DNA from: Alphaproteobacteria bacterium | GTDB lineage: Bacteria; Pseudomonadota; Alphaproteobacteria; UBA828 | Length of the DNA stretch: 64,000 nucleotides | Assembly: GCA_965214705.1 (NCBI GenBank) | Contig: CBDCCI010000002.1 | Coordinates: 32,001-96,000, forward strand | Direction of reading: 5' to 3' | Part shown: positions 11,822 through 48,759 of the stretch, one piece after another | Layout of the letters: each line of letters opens with the position of its first letter | Position numbering within the stretch: position 1 is the stretch's first letter | Position numbers and translations under genes: made by a program | Notes under the pieces: generated by a model | The model's input: the letters and a program-made list of their open reading frames with translations, nothing else | The model's database searches: none | Told to the model about the DNA's origin: nothing

Positions 11822-12503
11822 CTATCCAACTTTGGCATGGACGCTGAGCGTGCGTTGGCAGAAGCGTTCGATGGACGCGAGAATGTCGTCGGCCGACTTG
11901 GTCCAGCGGAACGGTCGGGGATCGCGGTTATGGCTTTCGATGTAGCGCTCAATGGCGGCCTTGAGGTCGGCGGTGGAGCGATGTGCGCCGCGCTTGATCT
12001 GGCGCTCGGTAAGCAGCGCGAAGAAGCGCTCGACCTGATTGAGCCATGACGAGGATGTTGGTGTGAAGTGGCTGTGCCAGCGCGGCCGCTTGGCGAACCA
12101 GTCGCAGATCAGCTTGGTCTTGTGGCTGGATGCGTTGTCCATAACGACATGGATGTCGAGGTCGGCCGGCACGTTGCGCTCCACCTCGTCGAGGAAGGTG
12201 CGCAACTCGCGCGCCCGATGCCGCTTCATGCAGTTGCGGATGACCGCACCCGTCGCCACGTCCAGCGCCGCGAACAGTGTGATCGTGCCGTGGTGCGGTC
12301 GTGCCGTGGTGCTTGTAATCGTGGGTGCGCCGCTCCACTTGGCTAGGGCACATGGGCAGCATCGGCTGGCTGCGGTCGAGCGCCTGGATCTGGCTCTTCT
12401 CGTCGACGCACAGCACCAGCGCGCGGTCCGGAGGGTCGAGATAGAGGCCTATGATGTCGCGCACCTTGGCGACGAACAGCGGATCGCTCGACAGTTTGAA
12501 GCC
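11822..12503 (-). pseudogene. IS630-family transposase, 3' fragment with frameshift
   Basis: FKLSSDPLFVAKVRDIIGLY, VDEKSQIQALDR, VMDNASSHK, SWLNQVERFF. Confidence 0.85.
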
Positions 12504-24110: not shown

Positions 24111-25624
24111 GGGGTGGTGGCCGACGGTAAGAGGCTGCCGACCGAACAGGGCACTCCGCAGGGCGGCATCGTTTCACCGCTGCTCAGCAATATCTTGCTG
24201 ACCCCGTTCGATTGGGAAATGCGTCGTCGCGGCTATCGACTAACGCGATACGCCGATGATTGGCTGATCACGTGCCGCACACGCGGGGAAGCCCGCGCAG
24301 CACTGGAGACGGCCAGGCGGATTCTGGCAAAGCTGGGTGTGTCCCTCAACGCCGGGAAGACCCGCATTGTCCATGTCAGGCACGGGTTTGAGTTCCTCGG
24401 CTACAAGATCAAGCAGGGCGAGCGGCCTCTCCGGCTGTCGTCCTCCAAGATCAAGAGCGGGGTTCGCGGGGGAGCGCGCTACGCGGTTCCGCGTGAGAAA
24501 TCCATCCGGCACTTCAAGGACCAGATTCGCCAGCGTACCCGGCGCAAGGCTCCTGTCAGCACGCAGGAGCTGATTGACGAGATCAACCCGATCATTCGGG
24601 GATGGGGCCAATACTATTGCAAGGCCCACGTCCGCGGGCTCTTCCACCAGCTTGACGGCTGGATCGTGCGGCGGCTCTGGTCGCATCGTCGCAAGCGCTG
24701 GCGCAACGCTGGCTGGAAACAGTTGCCGGAGCGCAAGCTGATCGACGAATACGGGCTTGTTCGCCTGATCTCACTGGTTCCGTCCTTGAACCTTCGTTGA
24801 GACACCTTTGTGAAAGCGGCTTACGGGAAAACCGTACGGGCCGTTTGAGCGGCGGACGGAGGCTAGCCTCGCGGGGCGCCTCCTCCGACCCGACAGTCGG
24901 AGTGCGGGAAAGCCGCATACATGGCGAAGGGGGGCAGAAGGTGGATCGGCTATCGACTGACGGAGGAACTATCCGTGGACTCGGATAATCAGGCCGACAT
25001 GGCCTGGCTCCTCAACGTGCAGCGGAAGTTGTATCGGTGGAGTAAGGAGACGCCTGAAGGCGCTTACGGCGATGTGTGGAACTGGGTAACCGATCCGCGC
25101 AATCTTCGCTGTGCATGGCACTCGATTGCCCAGAACAAGGGCAGACGAACGCCGGGCGTCGACGGGCTGACGGTGGCGAGCATTGCCGCTGGCGATGGAG
25201 GTGTACCGCTCTTTCTGGACGAGCTTCGGGAGGCGCTGCGCGATGGCAGCTACCGACCGTCGCCCGCCCGGCGGAAGTGGATTCCGAAGCCGGGCAAGCC
25301 GGGGAAGTTCCGACCCCTTGGTATCCCCACCGTTGCTGACCGCGTGGTGCAATGCGCGGTCAAGAACATCCTGGAGCCAATTTTCGAGGCGCGTTTCTGG
25401 CAGGTCTCCTACGGGTTCAGGCCCGGACGGGGCTGCCATGGCGCACTCGAACATATCCGGCTGACCACTCGGACTCACAAGTCGAGAACCGATGGGAAGC
25501 TTCGCGACCCTCCCTATCAATGGGTGATTGAAGGGTAAGCGGTATCGGGCCCCCATACTTCCAGCGGATCTGATTTCGGGGCTGACTCTCCGCCTTGACC
25601 ACGAGCCACACAGGAGAGATCGCG

Positions 25625-26050
25625 ATGACAGATTCGATTTTGGCATCTGGCGACGGTGTCGCTGTTGCTTCGGTTGAGATCCCAGCTTCTGAGGGAGCCG
25701 CCCCGGCTCCGTCTGAGCCGGCCCCCATGCGACGCTGGCCGGACGATGAGAAGGCGCGGATTGTCTCGGAGAGCTTTGAGCCGGGCTCTTCGGTTGCGGC
25801 GGTCGCGCGCCGCCATGGCGTCAGCGATACGACCCTGACCAAGTGGCGGCGGCGCGCGCGGGAGGGAACTCTTCCGGGCGCTCGGATTGGTGGCTCTGCA
25901 CCGCCATTTGTTCCCGTGGTGGTTGATAGCGTGACGTCCGAGCGGACGGTGGCGATCGAGGCGCTAGGCGTGGTCGTTCGCCTTCCGGTGGAGAGCGCGG
26001 TCGATCGGATTGTTGCGGTGGCCTCGGGCCTGGGCCGGGCGTCGTCATGA
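25625..26050 (+). CDS. tnpA: IS66 TnpA (HTH)
   Basis: RRWPDDEKARIVSES...SVAAVARRHGV. Confidence 0.88.
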   Translation: MTDSILASGDGVAVASVEIPASEGAAPAPSEPAPMRRWPDDEKARIVSESFEPGSSVAAVARRHGVSDTTLTKWRRRAREGTLPGARIGGSAPPFVPVVVDSVTSERTVAIEALGVVVRLPVESAVDRIVAVASGLGRASS

Positions 26051-26397
26051 TCGCGGCCCCCTCGCTTCGCATCGTGTTGGCGACGCGGCCGGTTGATTTT
26101 CGTCGCGGCCACGACGCGCTTGCGGCGACGGCGGCGGGGGAGCTGGACCTCGATATCTATTCCGGGGTGATCGTGATCTTCCGCTCGCGCCGCGGCGACA
26201 GGCTCAAGCTCCTTGCGTGGGACGGCAGCGGTCTGGTGATGACCTACAAGCGTCTGGAGCAGGGCCGCTTCGCCTGGCCTCGGATCGAGGATGGTGTGAT
26301 GCGCCTTACGAAGGGCCAGTTCGAGGCCCTCTTCGAGGGTCTGGACTGGCGCCGGGTGAAGGCCCGCCCGGTTCGCCGCCCGCTGGCGGCGGAGTGA
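26047..26397 (+). CDS. tnpB: IS66 accessory protein TnpB
   Basis: PVDFRRG, DRLKLLAWDGSG, KRLEQGRFAWP. Confidence 0.92.
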   Translation: MIAAPSLRIVLATRPVDFRRGHDALAATAAGELDLDIYSGVIVIFRSRRGDRLKLLAWDGSGLVMTYKRLEQGRFAWPRIEDGVMRLTKGQFEALFEGLDWRRVKARPVRRPLAAE

Positions 26398-26490
26398 GGC
26401 GGCACGCAGGCGGGGCCGCAGATTTCGGTCGCGGTCCCGCCTGCACTTTTCCCTGGTCATGCATTGGCGAATCGGATTAAGGGGTGGCCC

Positions 26491-28206
26491 ATGCCGAAGG
26501 TCACGCCCTCACCCCTCAGCAGCGCCGGTTCGCCGTCGCCTGCGGTGGTTTCGGCGGCGCTGGCGGCCCTGCATGCGGAGCTTGACGACGAGCGCGCGGC
26601 GCGCCGGGCGACGGAAGCAGCCCTATGCGAAGCGGAGCAGGCACGCGGCGCGGCGGAGGCGGCGAGGCAGACGGCGGAAGCGCGGGCGGCACGGCTGGAG
26701 GCCGAGAACGCGCAGAGCGCGGAGCAGATCAGCCGGCTTGAGCATCTCAACAAGGAGCTCAGGAAGGCGCTGTTCGGTCCGCGCTCCGAGAAGCTCGGCG
26801 AGGACGAGCGCCAGCTTACGTTCGAGGAGTTTTGGGCGGCGATCGCTGAAGCCGGCGGTCGGCCCGAGGCAGATGACCAGGAGCAGGACGAGGGGGCTGG
26901 CGGCAAGCGCCGGCGGCGCTCTTCCCGGGGGTCGCGCAGCGGGGTGCGCTTCGGGCCCCAGGTCGACCGGCGCGAGGAGGTGATCGAGCCGGACACGATC
27001 ATGTGCCCCTGCGGCTGCGGCGAGATGACGAAGATCGGCGAGGACCGCAGCGAGCGGCTGGACTATGAGCCGGCGAAGTTCACCGTCATCGAGACCGTGC
27101 GCCCCCGCTACGCCTGCAACAAGTGCAAGGGGGGCGGGGTGGTGCAGTCGCCGGCGCCGGCCGCTCTGGTCGAGGGCGGCCTTCCCACCGAGGCTCTTCT
27201 GGCGCAGGTGCTGATCGCGAAGTACGGCGATCATTGCCCGCTCTATCGCCAGTCGCAGATCTACGAGCGCTCGGGGATCGAGGTTCACCGTGCGACGCTG
27301 GCGACGTGGGTGGGCCAGGCGTCGTTTCACCTGCGCCCCGTGGTCGCTTGCCTGGAGGATGAGCTGAAGAAGTCGGATCACCTGGGTCTGGACGAGACCA
27401 CGATCCGCGTTCTCGACCCGGGCCGGGGCAAGACGAAGACGGGCTACATGTGGACCCTTGTGCGTGACGAGCGCCACTGGAGCGGCACGGACCCGCCGGG
27501 CGTCGTCTATCGCTATGCGCCCGGCCGCGGCGGCAAGTATGGCGCCGAGCTTATGGAGGGCTTTTCGGGGACGGTGCAGCTCGACGGCTACTCGGGCCAC
27601 AACATCCTGGCGCGGCCGGACCGGGCGGAAGGCCCTGTGACGCGGGCCCTCTGTTGGGCGCATGTAAGACGGAAGCTGAAAGAGGTATACGACTCGAGCG
27701 CATCGCCGATCGCGCTGGCCGGTCTGAATCGGATCGCGAAGCTCTATGCGATCGAGAAGAAGATCCGGGGCAAGCCGCCGGCGGAGCGCCGCGCGATCCG
27801 TTGGGAGGAGTCGGCGCCGATCGTGAACACCTTCGGTGTCTGGCTCGACGAGCAGCGCTCGCGCGTCTCACCGCGCTCGCGTCTCGGCGAGAAGCTGACC
27901 TATATCGCCAACCAGTGGGACGGGCTGCTGGAGTTCCTGCACGACGGTCGTGTCGAGATCGACTCGAACCTGGTGGAAAACCGAATCCGGCCGCTGAAGC
28001 TCACCGCCAAGAACGCGCTCTTCGCCGGCAACGACGAGGGTGCGCAAGCCTGGGCCCGCATCGCCTCGCTGATCGAGACCTGCAAGATGAACGGCGTCGA
28101 GCCCTACGCCTGGATGCGGAGCACGCTCGAGAAGATCGCCAAGGGCCACCCGCAGTCGGGCATCCAGGAGCTTCTGCCGTGGAACTTCCAGCCCGAGGCA
28201 AAATGA
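26491..28206 (+). CDS. tnpC: IS66 transposase TnpC
   Basis: LFGPRSEK, KYGDHCPLYRQ, DETT, CWAHVRRK, IDSNLVENRIR. Confidence 0.93.
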   Translation: MPKVTPSPLSSAGSPSPAVVSAALAALHAELDDERAARRATEAALCEAEQARGAAEAARQTAEARAARLEAENAQSAEQISRLEHLNKELRKALFGPRSEKLGEDERQLTFEEFWAAIAEAGGRPEADDQEQDEGAGGKRRRRSSRGSRSGVRFGPQVDRREEVIEPDTIMCPCGCGEMTKIGEDRSERLDYEPAKFTVIETVRPRYACNKCKGGGVVQSPAPAALVEGGLPTEALLAQVLIAKYGDHCPLYRQSQIYERSGIEVHRATLATWVGQASFHLRPVVACLEDELKKSDHLGLDETTIRVLDPGRGKTKTGYMWTLVRDERHWSGTDPPGVVYRYAPGRGGKYGAELMEGFSGTVQLDGYSGHNILARPDRAEGPVTRALCWAHVRRKLKEVYDSSASPIALAGLNRIAKLYAIEKKIRGKPPAERRAIRWEESAPIVNTFGVWLDEQRSRVSPRSRLGEKLTYIANQWDGLLEFLHDGRVEIDSNLVENRIRPLKLTAKNALFAGNDEGAQAWARIASLIETCKMNGVEPYAWMRSTLEKIAKGHPQSGIQELLPWNFQPEAK

Positions 28207-29465
28207 CTCGCGCGCTCACGGCGCTCCTCAAGAAATCCCCGTCGTAGTCAAGCCAGATTCCGGTATGGGGTCTGCGTACCGCTTACATTGAAGGCGACAT
28301 CGAGGGCTGCTTCGACAACATCGGCCATCACTACCTGATGGAGCGCGTACGGAAATCCGTCGCGGACCGGAAGGTCAACAGGCTGATCGTGCGGTTCCTC
28401 AAAGCCGGGGTATTGGAGGACGTCAACTACAATCCGACAACCACCGGCACGCCTCAAGGGGGTGTCCTGTCTCCCCTGCTGGCCAACATCGCGCTGAGCG
28501 CGATCGAGGAGCGGTACTGGTGGTGGGTGAGGCACCCGCATGATCCCAATATCCGGACTGACGGAAGGCGGATGGCCGCGACACGGCGATTTCGGGACAG
28601 GGAGGCCGGGCGAACGGTCTTCTACCCGGTCCGATATGCCGACGACTTCCTGATCTTCGTGGCGGGCGGTTACGACGATGCGGCTGCTGAGAAGCAGGCG
28701 CTCGCGGACTGGCTGCGCGAGGAGATGGGGCTGACGCTATCGGAGGAGAAGACGCGGATCACCAGACTGACGGAAGGATTCCGGTTCCTCGGATGCCGGG
28801 TTCGTCTCAAAGGGGACGACCATGACGGCTACATGTGCCGGGTCGAAATCCCGAAGGAGGCGATCAGTGACTTCTGCCGGCGGATCAAGCAAGTGCTGAA
28901 TCAGCGGACGCGGACGCGCTCGCTGAGAAGCGTGCTCCAGGAAATCAATCCAATCCTCCGGGGGTGGGGCCACTACTACCGCCACTGCATCGGGGCCAAG
29001 CGCATCCTGTCCAGTCTGGACTGGTATGTGTGGCGACGGCTCTGGCTGTGGATGCGGGGTAAGCACGACGGCGCCTCCCCGCGACGGGTGTACGCTTCTT
29101 GGTCGAGGCCGAGCCGGCAGTATCCCGGCGCTCGGGTCTGGGCCGATGGCGACACTGAGCTGTACCAAATGGGCCGGATTCCGGTCATGCAGTTCAAGCT
29201 CAATTGGATGAAAACTCCTGCCTTCACGAAAGCCTTTGGCGAGCCGGGTGCATAACGAAAGGTGCACGCCCGGTTCTGAGAGAGGGCGCGAGAAACCTGT
29301 GGTGCGTGAGGATCACCAGGCGCTCGCGTCCTACTCTACCGGACCCCTTGTTTTTGTTTCCCGCAAGCGGCGCGGCACCTCCCGCAGCGATGAAATGCGC
29401 GGTGCCGGCCGCGGGCCCGGCAACGGGATCGAGGGCGAGCCGCTCCCGGTGGCGCTCGTCACCGC

Positions 29466-29693
29466 TCACAGCATCGGGTGGGTGTCGAGGAGGTGTCGGG
29501 CGACCTCGCGGACGCGATGGCGCTCGTGCACCCTGACGGGCCCGCGGGGGTCTTCGCTGAGATGCACCACATGGAACACCGCGCCGCGGTTGAGGATGTC
29601 GTCCTGGCGGAAGACGTCGCCGACGTAGTCGCCGTCCTGATAGACGCGGGCCTCGTTCTCGCTCACCCGCCGGAACTTGATATCGCTGCTCAT
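29466..29693 (-). CDS. Hypothetical protein (75 aa)
   Basis: GGGGG RBS, GC3-biased codons, co-oriented after the toprim gene. Confidence 0.55.
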   Translation of the reverse strand: MSSDIKFRRVSENEARVYQDGDYVGDVFRQDDILNRGAVFHVVHLSEDPRGPVRVHERHRVREVARHLLDTHPML

Positions 29694-29770
29694 GGTCTTC
29701 CCCCCGTAGCGTGATGCCGGCGCGGAGAGGACTTTCTCTGCTCTCCATGCGGCTCGCCCGTTGGCTGCCC

Positions 29771-30754
29771 TCACCCGGGCTCCCGTTCTGCGAGCGCGGC
29801 CGCCGTCCAGGCGGCAAGCGCGGCGGGGCCGAACGCGAGGAGGTCGTCATTGAAATCTTCACCCCTGGGCGAGATGACCGTGGTGGCGATGCCCGCCCGC
29901 GCGCAGCGCTGGGCGAGGCGGAGAGCCGCGCGCTCTCCCTCGGCGTCGTTGTCGCGCGCGATCACGAGCCGCGTGACGCCGGCAGGCGGCGCGAATGCGC
30001 CGAGGCTGCCGGCGGACAGCGCTGCTGCTGCGACGGTGTCGGGGATGGCGGTGACGACGGACAGCACGGTCTCGATTCCCTCGCCGACCAGCAGCGTGCC
30101 GGCGCCGGGGTCGCCGAAGCGCACGGCATGACCGTGCACGCGCCCGAGCGCCTTGCGCGGCGATGAGAGGATTGCCTTCGCGGGACGCTGAGGGTCCAAC
30201 CACGTGCGATGGACACCGGTGACGATGTCGCCGTCGTGAGCGGTGACGGCGGCGACCAGCGCGGGCAGGCGGCGCACGCCGCCGCCGTCCCTGTAGAGCA
30301 ACGCGGGGTGGTAGCGAAGTGCCGGGAAGCGGCAGCGCGCGAGCCCGCGGGCGTGCAGATACGCTTCCGCGTGGGTGCCGTCGATGGCGCGGCAGCGTCG
30401 CCAGAGGCGGCGTGCCGCCTCGGTGGCGTCGTAGGTGTCGCCCGAGCCCGCAGCCGGCGCAGCCGACCGGGCGAGGAAGGCGCGGGCCTCGTCGAGCGCC
30501 GCGCGAAGCGTCGGCGCGCAGATGCGGTGGCGGATGATGTCGAGCAGGTCGCCGTGCTCATCGCTGCTTGCGTCGGTCCACTTCCCCGGGACGCCGGGGG
30601 GTGCCAGGCGGACGAAGAGTGACCGCCCCCGCGCGCCGTAGACGTCGCCGGCGGTCCAGTATCGGCCCTGCTTGCGGCCTTGGGGGAGGTAGCGGCGGCA
30701 CACCTCCTCGGCGCGTGCGCCGAGCGCGGCCGCGACGCGAGCGGCGGCGCTCAC
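29771..30754 (-). CDS. Toprim domain-containing primase-like plasmid protein
   Basis: GKWTD..EHGDLLDII, AEAYLHARG, TGVHRTWLD, VGEGIETVLS, IARDND. Confidence 0.82.
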   Translation of the reverse strand: MSAAARVAAALGARAEEVCRRYLPQGRKQGRYWTAGDVYGARGRSLFVRLAPPGVPGKWTDASSDEHGDLLDIIRHRICAPTLRAALDEARAFLARSAAPAAGSGDTYDATEAARRLWRRCRAIDGTHAEAYLHARGLARCRFPALRYHPALLYRDGGGVRRLPALVAAVTAHDGDIVTGVHRTWLDPQRPAKAILSSPRKALGRVHGHAVRFGDPGAGTLLVGEGIETVLSVVTAIPDTVAAAALSAGSLGAFAPPAGVTRLVIARDNDAEGERAALRLAQRCARAGIATTVISPRGEDFNDDLLAFGPAALAAWTAAALAEREPG

Positions 30755-31413
30755 GATGCACACCTCGGGCACCTGGGAGAACCGGCGGAGCCGGGCCTGT
30801 GAGCGGGGATGGGGCGCATGAGAGACCTCTCCGGAGGCTACGTGGGGCGCGCCCCGGTCCCGGCCTCGACCGGCCTCTCGCCGGCGCCGCGACGGCAGGC
30901 GCCGCGCGAAGCGCATGGCGCGCCGTCCGGCCAATGGCGGACTCGGATCAGGCTGCACGAAAAAGCCCGCCCCGCGCGGGAGGAACGCGGGGCGGGCTCT
31001 GGGGCGAGCGGGCGGGGAGGGCCCGCTGCGGGGACTGACTCAGAATGGGATATGGGTCCCCTGAGCGTCGGCCGATGCGGGCGCCGCATCGCCATCATCG
31101 GACGCCGCGGCGCCGTTGCCGTTGGCCCCGGCAGGCCGATCAAGAAACTGCACCCGGCCGCCCGGGACCAGCAGGATCTCGGTCGAGAAACGCCAGGAGT
31201 CGTCGCCGTCCTTCTTCCAGCGGCGGGTCTGGAGCTTGCCCTCGATGTAGACCAGGCGGCCCTTGGTGGCGTGCTTCTCGAGCATGTCGATCAGCCCCTC
31301 CTGGAAGGTGACGCCCCGGTGCCACTCGGTCCGGTCCTTCCGCTCGCCGCTCTGGCGGACGACCGTTTCCAAATGCAGGCAGTTACGCCGCAGCGGGTGA
31401 TCATCAGGATGCT

Positions 31414-31689
31414 TTGATTACCCACCCGTTTCATCCGCTCAGCGGCCGAACGATTCGGGTTTACGACCGCGTGAGCGGGAGCAGAAGAGCGATCGTTCGC
31501 TACTTCGTGGACCGCCCGCCGGGCGCGGTCCTTGCCAGTATCCCGATTTCCTGGACGTCGCTGCGGCGCGTCGACGACTTCGAGCGCGTTGCGTCGGGCC
31601 GCAGTCTGTTCCGCGCGGACGACCTGGTTGAGCTTGGCGAGGTCGTGGACTCGATGCTTTCGCCGGCCACGAAGCGTGATCAGAAATAA
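31414..31689 (+). CDS. DUF5372 / Y4bD-like protein (5' end supplied by attP)
   Basis: ITHPFHPLSG motif and SIPISWTS; frame open back to the att junction. Confidence 0.7.
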   Translation: MITHPFHPLSGRTIRVYDRVSGSRRAIVRYFVDRPPGAVLASIPISWTSLRRVDDFERVASGRSLFRADDLVELGEVVDSMLSPATKRDQK

Positions 31690-31862
31690 TGGCGCTATGT
31701 GATCAGAAACTAGGGCGCTCAGGCGCGGCGGTGTCCGGCATGGAATGCCGGATAATAGCTGGAATACTGCCATATAGAGCGAGATTGTCGCGGTTGGGTG
31801 TTGACGTGGTGGCGAATGATGGCGTATTATTTATTGAAACAGTTTCGGAGGGCCGCACCGCC

Positions 31863-32342
31863 ATGGCAGACCGTCGCGACGACACCGAAAAACAGGACCG
31901 GCTCAGGGAGGCCGGAACCCTCAACCGGACGCCGGAAAAGATCAGCGATCCGATGTTCGTCGCCGGCGACTTCTTCGATGCCCGCGACCTGCTCCAGGTC
32001 CGCTACGAGATGGTCCGGGTGGTCCGGCTGGGCGAGGCCACGCTTGCGCAGGCGGCGGCGCGGTTCGGAGTCTCGCGGCCGACCTGCTTCCGCATGGTCA
32101 AGGCGTTCGACGGGGGCGGGCTGCAGGAGCTCGTCCCGGCGCGGCGCGGGCCGCGGGGGCCGCACAAGATCAGCCCGGAGATACTGCGCTTCGTCGAGAA
32201 CTACAGGGCCCGGCACGGCCGGGTAGGCGCGCGCCGGCTGGCGCCGCTGATCGAGGCCGAGTTCGGCGTGAGGGTCCATCCGCGCGGCCTCGAGAAGGCG
32301 CTCGAGAGGGTTCAAAAAAAACTGCTGGAAGCTGGGCCGTGA
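31863..32342 (+). CDS. Helix-turn-helix protein of the recombinase element
   Basis: FFDARDLLQVRYEMVR, FGVSRPT, RGPRGPHK; GGAGG RBS. Confidence 0.8.
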   Translation: MADRRDDTEKQDRLREAGTLNRTPEKISDPMFVAGDFFDARDLLQVRYEMVRVVRLGEATLAQAAARFGVSRPTCFRMVKAFDGGGLQELVPARRGPRGPHKISPEILRFVENYRARHGRVGARRLAPLIEAEFGVRVHPRGLEKALERVQKKLLEAGP

Positions 32343-32644
32343 TGCGCGACGACGCCTGGAAGACCTACGAGAGTTGGCGGCGGCACTGGCTGTCGGGCGG
32401 GGACAGCAACGCGATCGCCGCGCTGCGCTTCCACGGTCTGCGCGGCGCCCTGGCCGTGACCGGGGCGGCGTGCGGGCGCAGCCGCCCGCACCTGCCGTCG
32501 CCTTCGGCCGTCAACGTGGAGTTGCCCATCGCCAATGCGGCGATCGCCGAGGTCGCCAGCCAGGTCCGGCGCCTGCTGCGCGTGCCGTCGCCTCCGGGGC
32601 TCGCCAGGACCGCGTGGGAACAGGAGGAGAATCGTCATGTCTGA
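32339..32644 (+). CDS. Hypothetical protein of the recombinase element
   Basis: Overlaps the neighbouring stop/start codons on both sides (operon coupling). Confidence 0.6.
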   Translation: MMRDDAWKTYESWRRHWLSGGDSNAIAALRFHGLRGALAVTGAACGRSRPHLPSPSAVNVELPIANAAIAEVASQVRRLLRVPSPPGLARTAWEQEENRHV

Positions 32645-34247
32645 GGCGCAAACCCGCAAGATCGCGCCGCATCATCTGGAGCGCGAGGCCTGCCTCTACG
32701 TGCGGCAGTCCTCGCTTCGCCAGGTCATGCGAAACACCGAGAGCACGCGGCGCCAGTACGGGCTGAGGCAGAGGGCGACGGCGCTCGGCTGGCCGATGGA
32801 ACGGATCCGGGTGATCGACGAGGACCAGGGCAAGTCGGGAGCCTACAGCGAAAACCGCAGCGGCTTCCGCGACCTGATGGGAAGCATCGCCGCCGGCGAG
32901 GTGGGCATCGTTCTCGGCCTGGAGGTCTCGCGCCTGGCGCGGGACAACGCCGACTGGCACCAGCTGCTGCGGATCGCCGGCATCACCAACACCCTGATCC
33001 TCGACGAGACCGGCATCTACGATCCCAACGACAGCAACGATAGGCTCCTTCTCGGCATGAAAGGAACGATGTCCGAGTTCGAGCTTCAGGGGATCAAGGC
33101 GCGGCTGCTCGGCGGCCAGCGCAACGCCGCCGCGCGCGGCGCGCTGAAGATCCGGCTGCCGACCGGCCTGGCCTACAACGGCAAGGACGAGGTTGTGTTC
33201 GACCCCGACCAGTCCGTCGTCGATGCGATCAGCCTCGTGTTCGACAGCTTCCGCCGGATGGGGTCGGCGAAGGCGGTGGCGACATGGATGCAGCGCGAGA
33301 ATATCGCGCTGCCGTCACGGCCGCGAAGCGGGCCGGTCTACGGCGAGCTGCGCTGGGCGCCACCGCGTGTGCCCCAAATCGCCCGCATCCTGAGAAATCC
33401 GCGCTACGCCGGCGCCTACGTGTATGGTCAGACGCATGTCGAGCGGCAGGCGGACGGGACCGGAAGATTGCGTGTCGTGCCGATGGAGAACTGGCTCGTC
33501 TGCATCCAGGACGCCCATGTGGGCTTCATCGATTGGGACGAGTATCTTCGCAATCGAGCCACGCTGAGAGGCAATGCAGCCTCCTTCCTGGAATCGCCCG
33601 CGCGCACGGCGGGACCCCGCGAGGGGGCGGCGCTGTTGCAGTCGCGGGTGATCTGCGGCCACTGCGGCCGGCGCATGACCATGCAGTACAACAACGCTCT
33701 TCCGCACCGCAACCGGCCGGCGCGCTACATCTACATCTGCAACACAGAGGCTAACCATTACGGACGGAAGACCTGCCAGAGCATGCGCGGCGATCTCGTC
33801 GACGCCGAGATATCGCGCTTCGTGATCGACGCGTTGAACCGCGAAAACATCGATGTTGCCCTGGCGGTACAACAGCAGGTCGATGTGGAGTTCGCCGAGG
33901 CCGATGCGCAGCGCGCCAGGCGCATCGAGGGTATCCGCTACGAGGCCGACCTGGCGCGGCGCAGGTTCTTCGAGGTCGACCCCGCCAACCGGCTGGTGGC
34001 GGCGTCGCTCGAAGCCGATTGGAACGAGCGCCTGCGCGAGCTGGACGAGGCCTGCGCGGAACGCGAGGCCCGCGCCGCGGCGCGGGATACCGAGCTCTCC
34101 GAGCGGCAGGTCGAGCGCATCCGGGAACTGGCGCGCGACTTCGAGCAGGTATGGAACGTAAGCGGTATCGGGCCCCCATACTTCCAGCGGATCTGATTTC
34201 GGGGCTGACTCTCCGCCTTGACCACGAGCCACACAGGAGAGATCGCG

Positions 34248-34673
34248 ATGACAGATTCGATTTTGGCATCTGGCGACGGTGTCGCTGTTGCTTCGGTTGA
34301 GATCCCAGCTTCTGAGGGAGCCGCCCCGGCTCCGTCTGAGCCGGCCCCCATGCGACGCTGGCCGGACGATGAGAAGGCGCGGATTGTCTCGGAGAGCTTT
34401 GAGCCGGGCTCTTCGGTTGCGGCGGTCGCGCGCCGCCATGGCGTCAGCGATACGACCCTGACCAAGTGGCGGCGGCGCGCGCGGGAGGGAACTCTTCCGG
34501 GCGCTCGGATTGGTGGCTCTGCACCGCCATTTGTTCCCGTGGTGGTTGATAGCGTGACGTCCGAGCGGACGGTGGCGATCGAGGCGCTAGGCGTGGTCGT
34601 TCGCCTTCCGGTGGAGAGCGCGGTCGATCGGATTGTTGCGGTGGCCTCGGGCCTGGGCCGGGCGTCGTCATGA
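34248..34673 (+). CDS. tnpA: IS66 TnpA
   Basis: Identical translation to copy 1. Confidence 0.88.
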   Translation: MTDSILASGDGVAVASVEIPASEGAAPAPSEPAPMRRWPDDEKARIVSESFEPGSSVAAVARRHGVSDTTLTKWRRRAREGTLPGARIGGSAPPFVPVVVDSVTSERTVAIEALGVVVRLPVESAVDRIVAVASGLGRASS

Positions 34674-35020
34674 TCGCGGCCCCCTCGCTTCGCATCGTGT
34701 TGGCGACGCGGCCGGTTGATTTTCGTCGCGGCCACGACGCGCTTGCGGCGACGGCGGCGGGGGAGCTGGACCTCGATATCTATTCCGGGGTGATCGTGAT
34801 CTTCCGCTCGCGCCGCGGCGACAGGCTCAAGCTCCTTGCGTGGGACGGCAGCGGTCTGGTGATGACCTACAAGCGTCTGGAGCAGGGCCGCTTCGCCTGG
34901 CCTCGGATCGAGGATGGTGTGATGCGCCTTACGAAGGGCCAGTTCGAGGCCCTCTTCGAGGGTCTGGACTGGCGCCGGGTGAAGGCCCGCCCGGTTCGCC
35001 GCCCGCTGGCGGCGGAGTGA
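34670..35020 (+). CDS. tnpB: IS66 TnpB
   Basis: Identical translation to copy 1. Confidence 0.92.
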   Translation: MIAAPSLRIVLATRPVDFRRGHDALAATAAGELDLDIYSGVIVIFRSRRGDRLKLLAWDGSGLVMTYKRLEQGRFAWPRIEDGVMRLTKGQFEALFEGLDWRRVKARPVRRPLAAE

Positions 35021-35113
35021 GGCGGCACGCAGGCGGGGCCGCAGATTTCGGTCGCGGTCCCGCCTGCACTTTTCCCTGGTCATGCATTGGCGAATCGGAT
35101 TAAGGGGTGGCCC

Positions 35114-36829
35114 ATGCCGAAGGTCACGCCCTCACCCCTCAGCAGCGCCGGTTCGCCGTCGCCTGCGGTGGTTTCGGCGGCGCTGGCGGCCCTGCATGCG
35201 GAGCTTGACGACGAGCGCGCGGCGCGCCGGGCGACGGAAGCAGCCCTATGCGAAGCGGAGCAGGCACGCGGCGCGGCGGAGGCGGCGAGGCAGACGGCGG
35301 AAGCGCGGGCGGCACGGCTGGAGGCCGAGAACGCGCAGAGCGCGGAGCAGATCAGCCGGCTTGAGCATCTCAACAAGGAGCTCAGGAAGGCGCTGTTCGG
35401 TCCGCGCTCCGAGAAGCTCGGCGAGGACGAGCGCCAGCTTACGTTCGAGGAGTTTTGGGCGGCGATCGCTGAAGCCGGCGGTCGGCCCGAGGCAGATGAC
35501 CAGGAGCAGGACGAGGGGGCTGGCGGCAAGCGCCGGCGGCGCTCTTCCCGGGGGTCGCGCAGCGGGGTGCGCTTCGGGCCCCAGGTCGACCGGCGCGAGG
35601 AGGTGATCGAGCCGGACACGATCATGTGCCCCTGCGGCTGCGGCGAGATGACGAAGATCGGCGAGGACCGCAGCGAGCGGCTGGACTATGAGCCGGCGAA
35701 GTTCACCGTCATCGAGACCGTGCGCCCCCGCTACGCCTGCAACAAGTGCAAGGGGGGCGGGGTGGTGCAGTCGCCGGCGCCGGCCGCTCTGGTCGAGGGC
35801 GGCCTTCCCACCGAGGCTCTTCTGGCGCAGGTGCTGATCGCGAAGTACGGCGATCATTGCCCGCTCTATCGCCAGTCGCAGATCTACGAGCGCTCGGGGA
35901 TCGAGGTTCACCGTGCGACGCTGGCGACGTGGGTGGGCCAGGCGTCGTTTCACCTGCGCCCCGTGGTCGCTTGCCTGGAGGATGAGCTGAAGAAGTCGGA
36001 TCACCTGGGTCTGGACGAGACCACGATCCGCGTTCTCGACCCGGGCCGGGGCAAGACGAAGACGGGCTACATGTGGACCCTTGTGCGTGACGAGCGCCAC
36101 TGGAGCGGCACGGACCCGCCGGGCGTCGTCTATCGCTATGCGCCCGGCCGCGGCGGCAAGTATGGCGCCGAGCTTATGGAGGGCTTTTCGGGGACGGTGC
36201 AGCTCGACGGCTACTCGGGCCACAACATCCTGGCGCGGCCGGACCGGGCGGAAGGCCCTGTGACGCGGGCCCTCTGTTGGGCGCATGTAAGACGGAAGCT
36301 GAAAGAGGTATACGACTCGAGCGCATCGCCGATCGCGCTGGCCGGTCTGAATCGGATCGCGAAGCTCTATGCGATCGAGAAGAAGATCCGGGGCAAGCCG
36401 CCGGCGGAGCGCCGCGCGATCCGTTGGGAGGAGTCGGCGCCGATCGTGAACACCTTCGGTGTCTGGCTCGACGAGCAGCGCTCGCGCGTCTCACCGCGCT
36501 CGCGTCTCGGCGAGAAGCTGACCTATATCGCCAACCAGTGGGACGGGCTGCTGGAGTTCCTGCACGACGGTCGTGTCGAGATCGACTCGAACCTGGTGGA
36601 AAACCGAATCCGGCCGCTGAAGCTCACCGCCAAGAACGCGCTCTTCGCCGGCAACGACGAGGGTGCGCAAGCCTGGGCCCGCATCGCCTCGCTGATCGAG
36701 ACCTGCAAGATGAACGGCGTCGAGCCCTACGCCTGGATGCGGAGCACGCTCGAGAAGATCGCCAAGGGCCACCCGCAGTCGGGCATCCAGGAGCTTCTGC
36801 CGTGGAACTTCCAGCCCGAGGCAAAATGA
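35114..36829 (+). CDS. tnpC: IS66 transposase TnpC
   Basis: Identical translation to copy 1. Confidence 0.93.
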   Translation: MPKVTPSPLSSAGSPSPAVVSAALAALHAELDDERAARRATEAALCEAEQARGAAEAARQTAEARAARLEAENAQSAEQISRLEHLNKELRKALFGPRSEKLGEDERQLTFEEFWAAIAEAGGRPEADDQEQDEGAGGKRRRRSSRGSRSGVRFGPQVDRREEVIEPDTIMCPCGCGEMTKIGEDRSERLDYEPAKFTVIETVRPRYACNKCKGGGVVQSPAPAALVEGGLPTEALLAQVLIAKYGDHCPLYRQSQIYERSGIEVHRATLATWVGQASFHLRPVVACLEDELKKSDHLGLDETTIRVLDPGRGKTKTGYMWTLVRDERHWSGTDPPGVVYRYAPGRGGKYGAELMEGFSGTVQLDGYSGHNILARPDRAEGPVTRALCWAHVRRKLKEVYDSSASPIALAGLNRIAKLYAIEKKIRGKPPAERRAIRWEESAPIVNTFGVWLDEQRSRVSPRSRLGEKLTYIANQWDGLLEFLHDGRVEIDSNLVENRIRPLKLTAKNALFAGNDEGAQAWARIASLIETCKMNGVEPYAWMRSTLEKIAKGHPQSGIQELLPWNFQPEAK

Positions 36830-37624
36830 CTCGCGCGCTCACGGCGCTCCTCAAGAAATCCCCGTCGTAGTCAAGCCAGATTCCGGTATGGGGTCTGCGT
36901 ACCGCTTACTATGGAACGCCGCCGAGACCGGAAACGCGGACCGCAAGCGGCTGCTCGGGCTTCTGATCGAGGATGCGACGCTGACCCGGGACGGCTCCGA
37001 GGTGACGATCGGCCTGCGCATGCGCGGAGGACGCTCCCTGACGCTGGAGCCGCTTCAACTGCCAAGACCGATGGCGGAGATCCGCAAGACACCTCCGGAG
37101 ACCGTCGCCGCGGTCGACCGGCTCCTGGAAGATCATGGCGACCACGGCACCGCACGGGAGCTGAACACGATGGGGCGCCGAAACTGGAAGGGCGAGCTCT
37201 ACTCGGCCTCGCACGTGGGCAGGATACGGCGGGCTTACGGCTTGCCCAATTACCTCGAGCGCAAGAAGAAACGGCTTCGCGACCAGGGCTTCTCGACCGC
37301 AGCGGAAGTAGCCGCTCAAATCGGCTTCAACGAGAGGGTCGTCCGGTTGATGGGAAGAACGGCAGCGGACACGAGGGTGGAGCGGGTCATCGTTCCGACC
37401 GAAGGCCGGCGGCGGTTCTGCATGTACAGAGCCAACTGCGCCGGCGAAACGGCGCCGTTGCCGGAACCCGCGTCGTGAGAGTGACAATGCCCCCAGGGAA
37501 CGAAACCGTCGCGGCGGCCAGTCGGCCCGGGCGGCGGTGGAGACTCGAAGCCCTCACCAAAAAAGGGGCCAGCGCCGAAGCGCCGGCCCCCGAGTTGGGA
37601 GGGAGGAACGAAGGGAAGCGGTCG

Positions 37625-38071
37625 CTAGAAGGGGATCGGATCCGCCGTATCCGCGGACGTGGCCGAACCGTTGGGGGCCTCGGCGGTGGCGGTCGCGCCG
37701 TTGCCGTTGGCCCCGTTCGGCTTGTCGAGGAACTGGACGCGGCCACCGGGCACGAGCAGGATCTCGGTGGAGAACCGGTCCGAGTCCTCGCCGTCCTTGC
37801 GGAAGCGGCGGGTCTGCATCTTGCCCGCGACGTAGACCAGCCGGCCCTTCTTCGCGTGCTTCTCCAGCATGTCGATCAGGCCGTCCTGGAACGTCACGCA
37901 GCGGTGCCACTCGGTCTTGTCGACCCGGTCGCCGCTGCCGTTCCGGTCGATGTAGCTCTCGTCGGTCGCCACGCTCATGTTGGCCACGCGGCCCCCGGAG
38001 GCGAGATGGTTGACGGTGACGTCGGCGCCGAGGCGGCCAATGACTTCCGCGCGGTTGAGTCCGAAGCTCAT
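37625..38071 (-). CDS. ssb: Single-stranded DNA-binding protein, intact cargo copy (148 aa)
   Basis: LNRAEVIGRLGAD, SVATDESY, TEWHR, KGRLVYVAGKMQTR, C-terminal DPIPF; AAGGAG RBS. Confidence 0.93.
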   Translation of the reverse strand: MSFGLNRAEVIGRLGADVTVNHLASGGRVANMSVATDESYIDRNGSGDRVDKTEWHRCVTFQDGLIDMLEKHAKKGRLVYVAGKMQTRRFRKDGEDSDRFSTEILLVPGGRVQFLDKPNGANGNGATATAEAPNGSATSADTADPIPF

Positions 38072-38694
38072 GGTCTTCTCCTTGAGTTCTGGTTGATGAC
38101 GATGGAATGCGAACGGCCGGGACGACTCTCTTCGCCCCCTTCTCCGTTCACCCTTCCCGCGCTTCACTCCAACTCCGGTCTGACGCCAGACCCGGTATCG
38201 GAGGAAATGGAACAATGTGGTGTGAGTTCGGCTGCACCATATGAAGTGCAACGGGACGGAAGGATCACCAGATCTGGCGGATCAACCTCACAGTCCCAAC
38301 AAGGTGCATCATGAAACACGAGACCGGTCGATATAGGATTCGTCGGTCGCCACCGACATATTGGCGACGCGCCCGCCGGAGGCGAGGTTGCTGATGGTCG
38401 CATCGGCGCCCAGCCGGCCGATGATCTGAGCGGAGTTGAGTCCGAACGCCATGATCGTGTCTCCTTGGGATTCGAGTTGATGACGAAGGTTGACGAGCGG
38501 GCTGGAGCCTCTCCTCGGCCCCGCCCTGCTCACCTTCTCCAAGCTCCCCTTCACTCTCGTCTGCCGCCGCTCCGAGGCCCGCCGGGTTCACGAGGCCTCG
38601 CGGACCGCACGGCCGGTGACTGCCGTGGCGCTGGTTCGGGATAGGGGACGTCAAGAGCGGTGTCACCTTCGGAAGGCCAGCGGCGGGTCCGCAC

Positions 38695-39507
38695 TCATGA
38701 GGGAGAAAGCGCCAGCAAGGGAACGTTGGAGAGGATCTCCACTTGCTCAGGGCGCAGGCGGGCGAAGGCGATGCAGGCGGCCGCTTCGGATTCGGTCTCG
38801 AAGACGCCCAGTTCCTCGCCCGTCTCCGAGTCGACCACGGTGATCTGCGGCGGCCAGAGCGCCGCCAGATGCCGCTCGGGCGCGCGGGAGTTGGAGCGAT
38901 ATGCGCAGCGCGGACAGCGCGCGGCGCCACCGGCACGGGCCGTGCAATCCACGCATTCGCCTCTTGCACGCCTCGCAACGTAGCGTTTCTTGGCGGTGGC
39001 ACTCTCGCGCTCGGGACAGACGCGCTCCTTCTCCAGCGCGAGGCACCGGCCGCAGCGCGACAGGCCCCCGACCGTGGGCTGCGTGCAGCGCACGCAGCGG
39101 CCGGCGGCGCGGCGCGCGTCATAGCGGCGGCGGTCGAGTGCGCGGCGTGCCTCGCGGCATGGCTCGCAGACAGAGCGGCTCTCCTCCGGCCGGCGGCGGC
39201 CGCAGGATGTACACAGCCCTGCCTCCTTCCACGCCCTCCGCCGCCGCCTGTCGCCGGCGCGGTCGGCGCGGCGGCACTGCTCCGGATTGCGGCCGCCGTA
39301 CGGCATCCCCTGCTGCCGGGCTCTGGCACGGCGGGCGCGGTCGGCGGCGCGGCGCTTCTCGGCACAGCCGGTGCACACTTTGCGACCGGGCTCGGGAGGA
39401 CGCTTGCCACATCTTGGGCAGAGCCCCTGCTCGGTGCGCTCGGCACGGAGCTGCTGCTGGCGGCTGAGATTGCAGGCCCCCTCGTGGACTGGCTTCTCCA
39501 GCGGCAT
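38695..39507 (-). CDS. Arg-rich protein with four tandem CxxC..CxxC modules
   Basis: GLCPRC..VCTGC, GLCTSC..VCEPC, GRCVRC..RCGRC, GECVDC..RCPRC. Confidence 0.75.
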   Translation of the reverse strand: MPLEKPVHEGACNLSRQQQLRAERTEQGLCPRCGKRPPEPGRKVCTGCAEKRRAADRARRARARQQGMPYGGRNPEQCRRADRAGDRRRRRAWKEAGLCTSCGRRRPEESRSVCEPCREARRALDRRRYDARRAAGRCVRCTQPTVGGLSRCGRCLALEKERVCPERESATAKKRYVARRARGECVDCTARAGGAARCPRCAYRSNSRAPERHLAALWPPQITVVDSETGEELGVFETESEAAACIAFARLRPEQVEILSNVPLLALSPS

Positions 39508-39517
39508 GACAGGCCAG

Positions 39518-39841
39518 TCAGCGCGTAGTGCGCACGAGACCCAGGCCCGCCGCAGCACAGCCCCAGATCTGCACTCCGGAGCGGGCCAGCTTGACCCCGG
39601 TGCAGATGATGATCTCGTCGCGTTCGGGTCGCATCTTCCTGACGGCAGCCAAGCTCGCGATCGTGCGCCGTTGCTTGCGTCGGCCCTTCGTTCCGGGCTG
39701 CTCCGGCTGGACGGGTTCGATCTGGCCGTCGGGACGGGAGCGGTATTTCTCGACCACATAACGATTGTCCTCGAGTCCTTGCCCGAACAGGTGGATCAGA
39801 AAGGTCTGCGCGTCGCGATGGAACATCCGGCCGGTCCGCAT
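39518..39841 (-). CDS. Hypothetical protein
   Basis: GGGGAG RBS, ends 10 nt before the Cys-rich gene. Confidence 0.4.
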   Translation of the reverse strand: MRTGRMFHRDAQTFLIHLFGQGLEDNRYVVEKYRSRPDGQIEPVQPEQPGTKGRRKQRRTIASLAAVRKMRPERDEIIICTGVKLARSGVQIWGCAAAGLGLVRTTR

Positions 39842-40045
39842 GGCGCTGTCTCCCCCGGTGGTGGCTGCCGACGGCGGGGACACGCTCCGCAGCGCCGCCC
39901 CCGCCGCCCGCGTCACGGCCGACCTCTCGCTCCTGGCGGCGCTCGGCGCGGGCGCGATGAGGGACGGCTGTCGTTGATTGTCCAGACCCGCTCACCCGCG
40001 CGCACTTGCTCTGATTCAGGCGCTTGATCCCGGTTGCGGTGCAGC

Positions 40046-47877: not shown

Positions 47878-48759
47878 TCAGCGATTGAGGGCCCGTTTCC
47901 AGTCTTTTCGCAGCGGCCTGAGCCAGATGTCCTTCCTGGGCTTGTCGTAGAGCTTGTGCCGGTCGTAGCGCCCACGCCCCTGGGTGTTTCCGACGCGGAT
48001 CCAGCCGGATGCCTTGTAGACGGCGCCGGTGTAGCGCGGGGTCTGGACGAAGGTCTCGATGAGTACGGGCGCGGTGTTGTAGCGCTCGGCCCAGTCGATG
48101 GGCAGACGGCGGCGGACGATGGCGAGGATGTGCGAGCCCAGGTTGGGGATCTTGATCCAGGGCAGGATCAGGAACCTGGGATTGTCGACCACCAGCGGCA
48201 GGTTCTTCTCGCGCATCTCAGGGGTCCAGCCGACGAAGGCATCGCGCGGCGCCAGCTTCCAGGCGGCGGTTGAGAAGCCGAGCATGGCGAGCGGCCAGCC
48301 GTTCCGGTCGTGGACGGCGTAGCGCATCTGGGCGCCGACCAGGGTCTTGTAACCGAGGTAGTGGTAGCGGGCGACGAACTCGTTCCAGAGCTTGCCCTCT
48401 CGGGTTCCGCGCACGACGGTGCGCATGTTGAGCGGGCGGACCTCGTCCAGCGCCGTCGGGGCGGGGAAGAGCGGCGGCTCGGTGTCGGGCCCGAAGACGA
48501 TCGGCTTTGGCGGACCCGGTTGCCACCTCGGCGGCGGCAGGGTGATCAGACCATCCTTGTGCATGGCCAGCATGGTGACGCGGGCCATCATGTCCTTCAG
48601 GCCTCCGTCGGGCTTGAGCCAGCCGATGCGCCGGCAGAACTCCCTGGACAACGCATGGCGGCTGAGCGGCGGGGGTCCGGCGATCAGCGCGCGCAGCAGC
48701 GCCATCTCTTCAGCGCTGAAGTCTCGCCCGTAATAGCGGCACTCCACGGTGCCGCTCAC
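47878..48759 (-). CDS. DUF4338 (DruA-like) protein
   Basis: LWNEFVARYHYLGY, RFLILPWIKIPNLGS, LIETFV, YKASGW..GRGR; GTG overlaps the transposase TGA. Confidence 0.82.
   Translation of the reverse strand: MSGTVECRYYGRDFSAEEMALLRALIAGPPPLSRHALSREFCRRIGWLKPDGGLKDMMARVTMLAMHKDGLITLPPPRWQPGPPKPIVFGPDTEPPLFPAPTALDEVRPLNMRTVVRGTREGKLWNEFVARYHYLGYKTLVGAQMRYAVHDRNGWPLAMLGFSTAAWKLAPRDAFVGWTPEMREKNLPLVVDNPRFLILPWIKIPNLGSHILAIVRRRLPIDWAERYNTAPVLIETFVQTPRYTGAVYKASGWIRVGNTQGRGRYDRHKLYDKPRKDIWLRPLRKDWKRALNR

Follow-up and report, generated by a model that had tools for sequence, protein, structure and literature searches.

What does a mobile element achieve by carrying a complete copy of the very gene that it interrupts? 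The question is raised by a locus in a 64,000-nucleotide stretch of the genome of an Alphaproteobacteria bacterium (assembly GCA_965214705.1, contig CBDCCI010000002.1, positions 32,001 to 96,000; this whole stretch is called the window, and coordinates are counted from its first letter). Here, a serine-integrase unit of ∼4.2 kb, not counting an IS66-family element inside it, splits the ssb gene of a probably mobile gene module at codon 43/44. Four genes lie between its junctions: a DUF5372 gene, a helix-turn-helix (HTH) gene, and a gene for a 693-aa large serine recombinase (LSR) on the forward strand and a complete ssb gene on the reverse strand. With a probability of roughly 0.6, we suggest that this spare ssb replaces the function of the broken host gene, because it is intact, is under purifying selection, has kept its leader, and is co-oriented with the gene that it would replace.

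The boundaries of the unit were defined from the two halves of the host gene. On the reverse strand, the 5′ part of the host ssb (38327..38452; codons 1 to 42, with codon 43 completed by the core) ends in TCC TAT ATC GAC and leads into attL (38305..38326), which consists of the core dinucleotide CG (38326-38325) followed by the 20-nt P′ arm GTCTCGTGTTTCATGATGCA (38324-38305). At the other end, attR (31356..31377, reverse strand) consists of the 20-nt P arm TGCATTTGGAAACGGTCGTC (31377-31358) and the core CG (31357-31356), after which C CAG AGC GGC GAG begins the 3′ part of the host gene (31040..31355, reverse strand; the third base of codon 43, codons 44 to 147, and the stop, with the protein ending in HIPF). 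The 5′ part is 80% identical to the spare ssb by tblastn (aa 1-44), and the 3′ part matches positions 40-98 of the Pfam SSB profile (3.1e-11). The two arms are imperfect inverted repeats around the CG core, symmetric (reverse-complementary) at 12 of 20 positions. The host halves join in a single frame, ESYID-R-QSGERKD. A preliminary description of the locus, made from the sequence alone, had placed the cut at YID-R-QSGE with the halves in frame, and this is what both junctions display; its span for the element, 31356-38327, is correct to within 1 to 2 nt, and its attP reconstruction equals the reverse complement of the two arms and the core. Since intact ssb paralogues of the same genome have the site uninterrupted (e.g., GAT CGC CAG AGC GGC GAG CGG), insertion gains or loses nothing but the core. 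The target is thus cut conservatively and in frame, and nothing beyond the 2-nt core is duplicated.

In the inserted state, the 5′ host frame continues for five codons of the P′ arm, where a TGA ends it. On the other side, an open reading frame (ORF) at 31040-31372 (reverse strand, 110 aa) has a TTG start within the P arm and reads in frame into the 3′ host piece, so that a truncated C-terminal SSB fragment could be produced from it.

Reading inward from attR, the DUF5372 gene (31414..31689, forward strand; 91 aa; PF17342, 6.4e-14) and the HTH gene (31689..32342, forward strand; 217 aa; Pfam HTH_29, HTH_32, and HTH_28) are the first and second genes of an operon, and an HTH gene is conserved beside the recombinase in relatives as well. 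The LSR gene follows in two parts on the forward strand. The 5′ part (32637..34157) encodes the resolvase catalytic and recombinase domains, the zinc ribbon, and the start of a presumed coiled coil; the 3′ part (36910..37478; ∼186 codons) was recognized by tblastn to the C termini of intact homologues of 690-695 aa. Between them, splitting the recombinase near residue 507, sits an IS66-family element of 2752 bp with tnpA, tnpB, and tnpC (34158..36909, forward strand). The spare ssb (37625..38071, reverse strand; 148 aa) is complete, and a spacer together with its leader (38072..38304, reverse strand) separates it from attL, with the last 75-120 nt matching, in local alignments, the leaders of the host gene and the ssb family. 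The start of the spare gene lies ∼250 nt behind the TGA of the truncated host frame. The ssb had been described as the only cargo, a claim that fails because the DUF5372 and HTH genes also belong to the unit.

To estimate how general this arrangement is, recombinase homologues were scanned in one genome per species. In total, 78 loci were recovered, 24 of which, from 15 genomes and with the window included, have an LSR of the same clade. The layout of the window recurs in the 23 further loci wherever sequence is available and is therefore more than a chance arrangement. In 19/24 loci, the DUF5372 end borders on the 3′ ssb piece, and the 5′ piece (aa 1-42/44), which adjoins 17 related elements, abuts the other end in 18/24; the remaining loci show a contig end, an element-only contig, or further rearrangement on the side concerned, and in two of them (L016 and L027) homology is lost abruptly within the unit. 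All readable flanks are ssb genes cut at the same codon, in different ssb paralogues, and no non-ssb flank was found among the 24 loci. Relatives, cargo-less ones among them, have conserved the P′ arm and show no more than 4 mismatches to it. In 19 loci, and always with the same position and orientation, the LSR gene and the 5′ piece enclose a complete ssb; in a 20th, a contig end truncates it. The 13 units that are bounded on both sides and free of secondary insertions are 4163-4213 bp long.

Two pairs of copies, each within a single genome but in different ssb paralogues (L011/L012 and L023/L032), delimit the mobile unit. Their identity is 100% in every 60-nt interval between the junctions, compared with 78-86% in the ssb flanks and ∼45% beyond. 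That the identity extends from junction to junction and takes in the ssb shows that the spare gene belongs to the mobile unit and that movement was recent. The occurrence of identical units in more than one ssb paralogue of a genome may also be read as an indirect sign of attP × attB recombination. These pairs, with the 24 clade loci, bear out the proposal that the unit is an ssb-specific serine-recombinase element carrying a whole ssb. They also remove the concern that the spare ssb came from a rearrangement unique to this contig. The genome holds 21 other near-full-length ssb paralogues, and a local rearrangement, a tandem ssb duplication, or Campbell-type homologous recombination between ssb genes might be invoked to place a broken and a complete gene side by side. 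Such an origin is refuted and retains almost no probability: the junction falls at one codon in 24 loci from 15 genomes, inverted arms occur at both ends, the blocks of 100% identity end exactly at the junctions, and homologous recombination would yield two hybrid full-length genes instead of two fragments.

The spare gene has the features of a working ssb. Its product matches PF00436 at residues 5-106 (2e-21) and scores 87.4 bits against TIGR00621, for which the cutoff is 53.95, and its C terminus, SADTADPIPF, is an acidic-hydrophobic tip of the type found in bacterial SSB proteins; we take a D-x-I-P-F-type tail tip to be the bacterial SSB motif. As the preliminary description had stated, the gene is complete, diverged, and co-oriented with the broken gene, with DNA identities of 79% and 76% to the two host halves. 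The protein is 74-82% identical to most full-length ssb paralogues of the genome and 67-68% identical to two others. All complete spare copies are open (19/19; 141-152 aa), and among 11 distinct spare genes the median pairwise dN/dS is 0.28, with a maximum of 0.48 (54 pairs). Small elements do capture neighboring DNA, and the ssb tree discussed below is poorly resolved, so the ssb could in principle be a neutral passenger without a role, captured once by an imprecise event. This is very unlikely given that all 19 complete spare genes are intact, whereas several copies have a broken recombinase, and given the median dN/dS, the conserved leader, and the constant position and orientation.

The leader is shared more widely than had been supposed. 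A leader of ∼75 nt (75-120 nt matched) precedes every ssb of the family, including the spare gene, and 51 distinct leaders were aligned; in the window, they lie at 38453-38580 (host) and 38072-38200 (spare), both on the reverse strand. The similarity between the leaders of the broken and the spare gene, pointed out earlier, is therefore real, but it characterizes the whole ssb family and is not peculiar to these two genes. Within the leader, GAACGG can pair with CCGTTC, or GAGCGGG with CCCGCTC, a compensated change, and the hairpin is followed by CATCGTCATCAAC. When folded as DNA and compared with shuffled sequences, the spare-gene leader has a z score of −2.87, whereas that of the host leader (z = −0.47) is no better than the shuffles. 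RNAalifold returned no consensus structure for the 51 leaders, whose alignment is gappy, and the hairpin was drawn from single folds and inspection by eye. Rfam contained no family for the ssb leader, and only group II intron parts were matched. The leader could be a regulatory RNA or a single-strand promoter.

In a tree of 65 recombinases (built by a quick method, with SH-aLRT support only), the LSRs of the ssb-targeting, ssb-carrying units form one clade (19 rows; SH-aLRT, 99) nested among cargo-less relatives. Its sister group is formed by cargo-less elements that target IS21 (75-76% LSR identity), and elements that target IS110 branch next (support, 98). These relatives share the operon and the P′ arm, and their core is AA, but they lack an ssb and differ in their flanks. 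An IS21-family transposase gene is cut after RDK (RDK|xxVE) in nine loci (L024, L025, L026, L038, L039, L044-L046, and L056; right ends near 12060-12146); the NCBIfam IS21 model scores 166.5 bits for L024, against a cutoff of 160, and 150.8 bits for L026. The IS21 cut is also found in Rhodothermales elements at 55% recombinase identity. Other relatives lie in genes for IS110-family or IS481-like transposases (L030, L035, L055, L034, L036; L053, L054); the IS110-family gene is cut before NDxxDA (K|NDxxDA) and scores 73 bits on a partial N terminus, and the IS481-like match is weak. Because only the clade that hits ssb carries ssb, the ssb cargo is tied to the ssb target, and across the homologues surveyed the cargo co-occurs with this target only. 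Insertion of homologues into unrelated genes, which would speak against an ssb-directed element, was thus observed for relatives with at most 78% LSR identity and for no member of the ssb clade. Overall, the family seems, from its flanks, to specialize in genes of other mobile elements.

More distant versions of the operon also exist. The same three genes occur in 530 plasmid records with an LSR ∼49% identical, for example, in pNGR234a at 33989-37258, where they are annotated as a DUF5372 family protein, an HTH protein, and a recombinase. Six paralogous LSR loci (37-55% identity) are present in the genome of the window (G000; C1:21411-24553, C2:22375-25517, C1:1814386-1817708, C3:588805-592222, C3:595896-601705, and C3:2070558-2072003). 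Five have a DUF5372 or HTH gene beside the recombinase, and the sixth is a recombinase alone; two of the six are identical to each other, and two are degraded. The ends of these paralogues (on C1, C2, and C3) were not found with the arm motifs, and no targets were found for them. An ssb 5′ fragment located 1.4 kb from the operon copy on C2 has a different end position and an unrelated junction and was not counted; the junctions of the other three ssb fragments of the genome are also unrelated. A megablast search of 29500-40000 against plasmids returned only pieces of IS66.

The recombinase itself matches PF00239 (residues 19-169; 1e-18), PF07508 (1e-10), and PF13408 (2.7e-9). R23, Q24, and S25 (in YVRQSS) are invariant in 14 homologues, and from its position we infer that S25 is the serine nucleophile; the zinc-ribbon residues C340, C343, C368, and C380 are likewise invariant in the 14. 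A C-terminal extension of ∼190 aa has no Pfam match, and no match to DUF4368 was found. Judging by membership in the LSR family, the mechanism of movement is well founded. A complex of an intact LSR with its DUF5372 protein was predicted from an alignment of 14 sequences for each and obtained an ipSAE of 0.68, compared with 0.00 for the best of three controls; 58/80 solved complexes and 2/110 mismatched pairs reach the mark used, a calibration that is only rough for a prediction made with our own alignments. At least 85% of contacts are shared by the prediction runs, and DUF5372 has a pLDDT of at least 71. The predicted interface on the LSR comprises residues 339-345, in the zinc ribbon, and residues 399-419 and 487-549. 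In the accessible part of one account, contacts between integrases and recombination directionality factors (RDFs) are placed at this kind of region (PMC11795197). The predicted contacts at the zinc-ribbon/coiled-coil region therefore make DUF5372 a candidate directionality factor of the LSR.

This prediction bears on another role for the spare gene. [quoted passage not shown] We regard such a role as unlikely. The spare gene encodes a canonical bacterial-type SSB with the same leader and C-terminal tip as the residents, and any resident SSB would serve the integrase equally; ssb is absent from sister clades that possess this DUF5372-HTH-LSR operon; and the partner predicted at the zinc-ribbon/coiled-coil junction is DUF5372, not SSB.

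The core dinucleotide adds a further aspect to the relation between the spare gene and its target. The φC31 and Bxb1 integrases require the same central dinucleotide in attP and attB, and the orientation of the insert is set when this core is asymmetric. The core is AA in 16 loci and CG in three (the window, L080, and L033), and in three loci of one genome GC and CG cannot be told apart by one base. The AA core falls in a codon for Lys or Asn that follows one for Asp, Asn, or Ser, and the CG core falls in an Arg codon. At the equivalent position, each of the 19 spare genes reads CG or AG. Because CG or AG mismatches an AA core, the spare gene of an AA lineage should be immune to its own integrase.

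Under the proposed mechanism, the LSR would recombine a circular attP (P arm, core, P′ arm) with attB inside ssb, and in most lineages the asymmetric AA core would fix the orientation. The spare ssb would then always land co-oriented with the broken gene, ∼250 nt behind a truncated 5′ piece that ends at the TGA in the P′ arm, and, with its own family-type leader kept, could take over the function of that gene. The host module would retain an SSB, the element could spread through many copies of the module at little cost, and in AA-core lineages the spare allele (CG or AG) would be no substrate for the integrase that brought it.

Several observations weigh against this picture. In the CG lineage to which the window belongs, the spare gene also has CG at the core position, and immunity by core mismatch fails; there, the spare gene differs only in the B′ arm (the downstream half-site), by one extra codon. 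CG is moreover palindromic, and the core alone would not fix orientation in this lineage; the orientation is the same in 3/3 CG-type loci, which are too few to judge. The genome contains, besides 21 further near-full-length ssb genes of the family, four other ssb fragments, which implies that loss of a module's ssb is survivable. The genes 3′ of the host ssb are pushed 4.2 kb away, behind an operon that faces the other way. Finally, an ssb tree of 68 shared columns, in which the partial cargo of L009 was mislabelled as a host piece, is unresolved and does not unite the spare genes in one clade; their distribution requires 6 changes, and 0/200 bootstrap trees have a single origin. This reflects either too short an alignment or sequence exchange between spare and host ssb genes.

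The allele at the core position could alternatively be the point of the cargo: the spare ssb would mainly serve competition, with an insertion-sensitive allele being swapped for an immune one that blocks the site and with compensation as a by-product. The CG or AG at the core position of the spare alleles in AA-core lineages is what such a function would require. We consider it improbable, given that the spare allele of the window's CG-core lineage has a matching core and that insertion destroys attB in any case, so that no spare gene is needed for blocking. Replacement of the broken gene's function thus remains our preferred account of the spare ssb.

The setting of the target gene may differ from what had been supposed. 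The preliminary description placed the element in a plasmid gene on a conjugative backbone. The window is located on a 3.0-Mb contig of a 7.9-Mb genome (98.5% complete), VirB4 (PF03135) had no matches in this genome or in three other host genomes, and the target ssb belongs to a multicopy module. The six genes of the module are orf132, the Cys-rich orf354, ssb, DUF7146/Toprim, orf102, and YspA/SLOG; Pfam returned nothing for orf354, orf132, and orf102. The module is present, in full or nearly so, at 14 loci of the genome, including the window (other copies are found, e.g., at C1:2817682-2822630 and C3:1279326-1284268), and beside insertions in other genomes. Several copies are broken by insertion sequence (IS) elements. 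The module is thus clearly repetitive and is likely mobile. ORFs of ∼710-740 aa with weak matches to the coupling-protein family (PF02534) lie 15-18 kb downstream of 4/4 insertions in one genome (G002) and 8 kb from 1/3 insertions in another (G001); none was found in a third (G003) or near the locus of the window. Around an intact module copy (C1:2.80-2.84 Mb) are ordinary genes, a group II intron, and IS elements but no transfer genes.

The IS66-family element is a later, secondary insertion, and the copy of the unit in the window is disabled by its broken LSR. The 8-bp target duplication TATGGAAC is present at 34150-34157 and 36910-36917, and the IS element with its duplication accounts for 2760 bp of the span first described. 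Contigs from four public runs were aligned to 29800-39700. In each of three runs (X1, X3, and X4), one contig joins 34149 to 36910; the joint in X1 lies on a 1033-nt contig that is otherwise identical, and another X1 contig spans the attR junction. In the fourth run (X17), which contains most of the stretch and may be its source, the IS-free joint was absent among the joints listed. Runs with a small share of the stretch came from sponge and coral metagenomes and were not taken to indicate a habitat. Because IS-free LSR alleles occur in three runs, the IS66 insertion is recent and polymorphic. With its LSR broken, the single copy in the genome of the window cannot have spread to the many empty, near-perfect attB sites there. 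No free attP junction was found in the related loci collected or in the genome of the window, and no circle joint was among the joints listed for the public-run contigs. The joints 31357>38328 and 31349>38327 were considered as an empty allele but were not counted, as their sides are only 22-31 nt and match other ssb paralogues.

Several other copies of the unit have also been modified or are incompletely placed. Secondary insertions within the operon were seen in L029, L015, L033, L035, and L053, so that such small elements are frequent landing sites; the insertion in L029 (2757 bp) is near the IS66 event of the window in size but lies at a different place. L017 is a 4213-bp contig that extends exactly from P arm to P′ arm without flanks, and its record title gives high coverage; it is probably a collapsed multicopy repeat rather than a circle.

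As a rule, site-specific integrases spare their target, either because a gene end is hit and rebuilt or because the element is excised on cue. If the spare ssb does replace the broken gene, a cut in the middle of a gene combined with a whole working copy behind the old promoter would amount to another means of inserting without harm, a fourth one for entering a conserved gene beside splicing, partial att duplication, and programmed excision, and to a natural example of "gene swap" integration. The units would in addition offer compact integrases (∼4.2-kb units with ∼20-nt att arms) whose natural attB sites are known and whose core varies naturally between AA and CG; a candidate new family of directionality factors, DUF5372; and a case of mobile elements specialized in parasitizing mobile elements, in symbiont genomes crowded with them.

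Among the closest parallels are the serine-recombinase integrative and mobilizable elements (IMEs) found in the Maff2-like, SNF2-like, and traG genes of Tn5252-superfamily integrative and conjugative elements of Firmicutes, which leave the target disrupted, as far as the accessible text goes (PMC5704250). Like the unit described here, they are small serine-recombinase elements within a conserved gene of another mobile element, by which they are carried. In contrast, they carry mobilization genes, and no spare copy of the target is described in the part of that source available (PMC5704250), whereas here a whole replacement gene travels, in Proteobacteria-labelled genomes from metagenomes, and none of the unit's four ORFs (DUF5372, HTH, LSR, and SSB) is a relaxase. 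Islands and IMEs with tyrosine integrases that rebuild a gene end through a partial duplicate in att also let the target's function survive, according to the same portion (PMC5704250). They supply the 3′ or 5′ end only, as described there; the unit in ssb, by contrast, cuts inside the gene, leaves both host pieces dead, and brings a complete, separate copy preceded by its own leader. Phage large serine integrases and their RDFs (φC31, Bxb1, TG1, and SPβ) differ, in what could be seen of the sources (PMC11795197, PMC11722253, PMC12286644), from the present unit, which is 4.2 kb, has no phage genes, and has DUF5372 as its candidate partner.

The DUF5372-HTH-recombinase operons of rhizobial and other plasmids have the same three genes, with no ssb cargo in the annotated stretch of pNGR234a. 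Helper-embedded satellites in prophage late genes resemble the present family in that an integrase clade repeatedly hits a gene of another mobile element, but replacement of the helper gene is not mentioned in the accessible portion (PMC10111431). Tn4451/Tn5397-type transposons and the multi-targeting LSR clade are likewise small elements with one LSR and a circular form, in the parts seen (PMC5704250, PMC10083194); in that clade (TnpX/TndX), DUF4368 is common and targets are relaxed, as the available text has it (PMC10083194), whereas the LSR described here has no DUF4368 and hits one codon of one gene family. Literature searches, which did not extend to supplements, found no account of DUF5372, of its operon as a mobile element, or of whole-gene replacement by an integrating element. 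The main text of PMC10083194 has no occurrence of "ssb," though its supplementary target-gene tables could list ssb or transposase targets.

Taken together, these observations can be drawn into a broader picture that we offer tentatively and with some doubt. DUF5372-HTH-LSR units may constitute an undescribed lineage of minimal hyperparasitic integrases, which home to a single conserved codon in genes that belong to other mobile elements (IS21 istA at DK|xxVE, IS110 at K|ND, IS481-like transposases, and the ssb of the module), with DUF5372 as a new directionality-factor family. The clade that hits transposase genes would kill its host IS, and the ssb clade, which enters a gene that its carrier needs, might have acquired a spare ssb with the native leader and, in AA lineages, a self-immune allele.

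The window as a whole is densely occupied by IS elements, integrase genes, and a group II intron. An identical copy of the IS66-family element, with a different target duplication (ATTGAAGG), is located at 25535-28286 and lies just upstream of an N-terminally truncated reverse-transcriptase ORF of a group II intron (28338-29339), and Rfam matches Intron_gpII at 29239-29339; this IS66 copy appears to have cut the intron. An ORF at 47878-48915 on the reverse strand has a DruA (Druantia) domain (2.8e-38) and adjoins a 745-aa IS66-family transposase.

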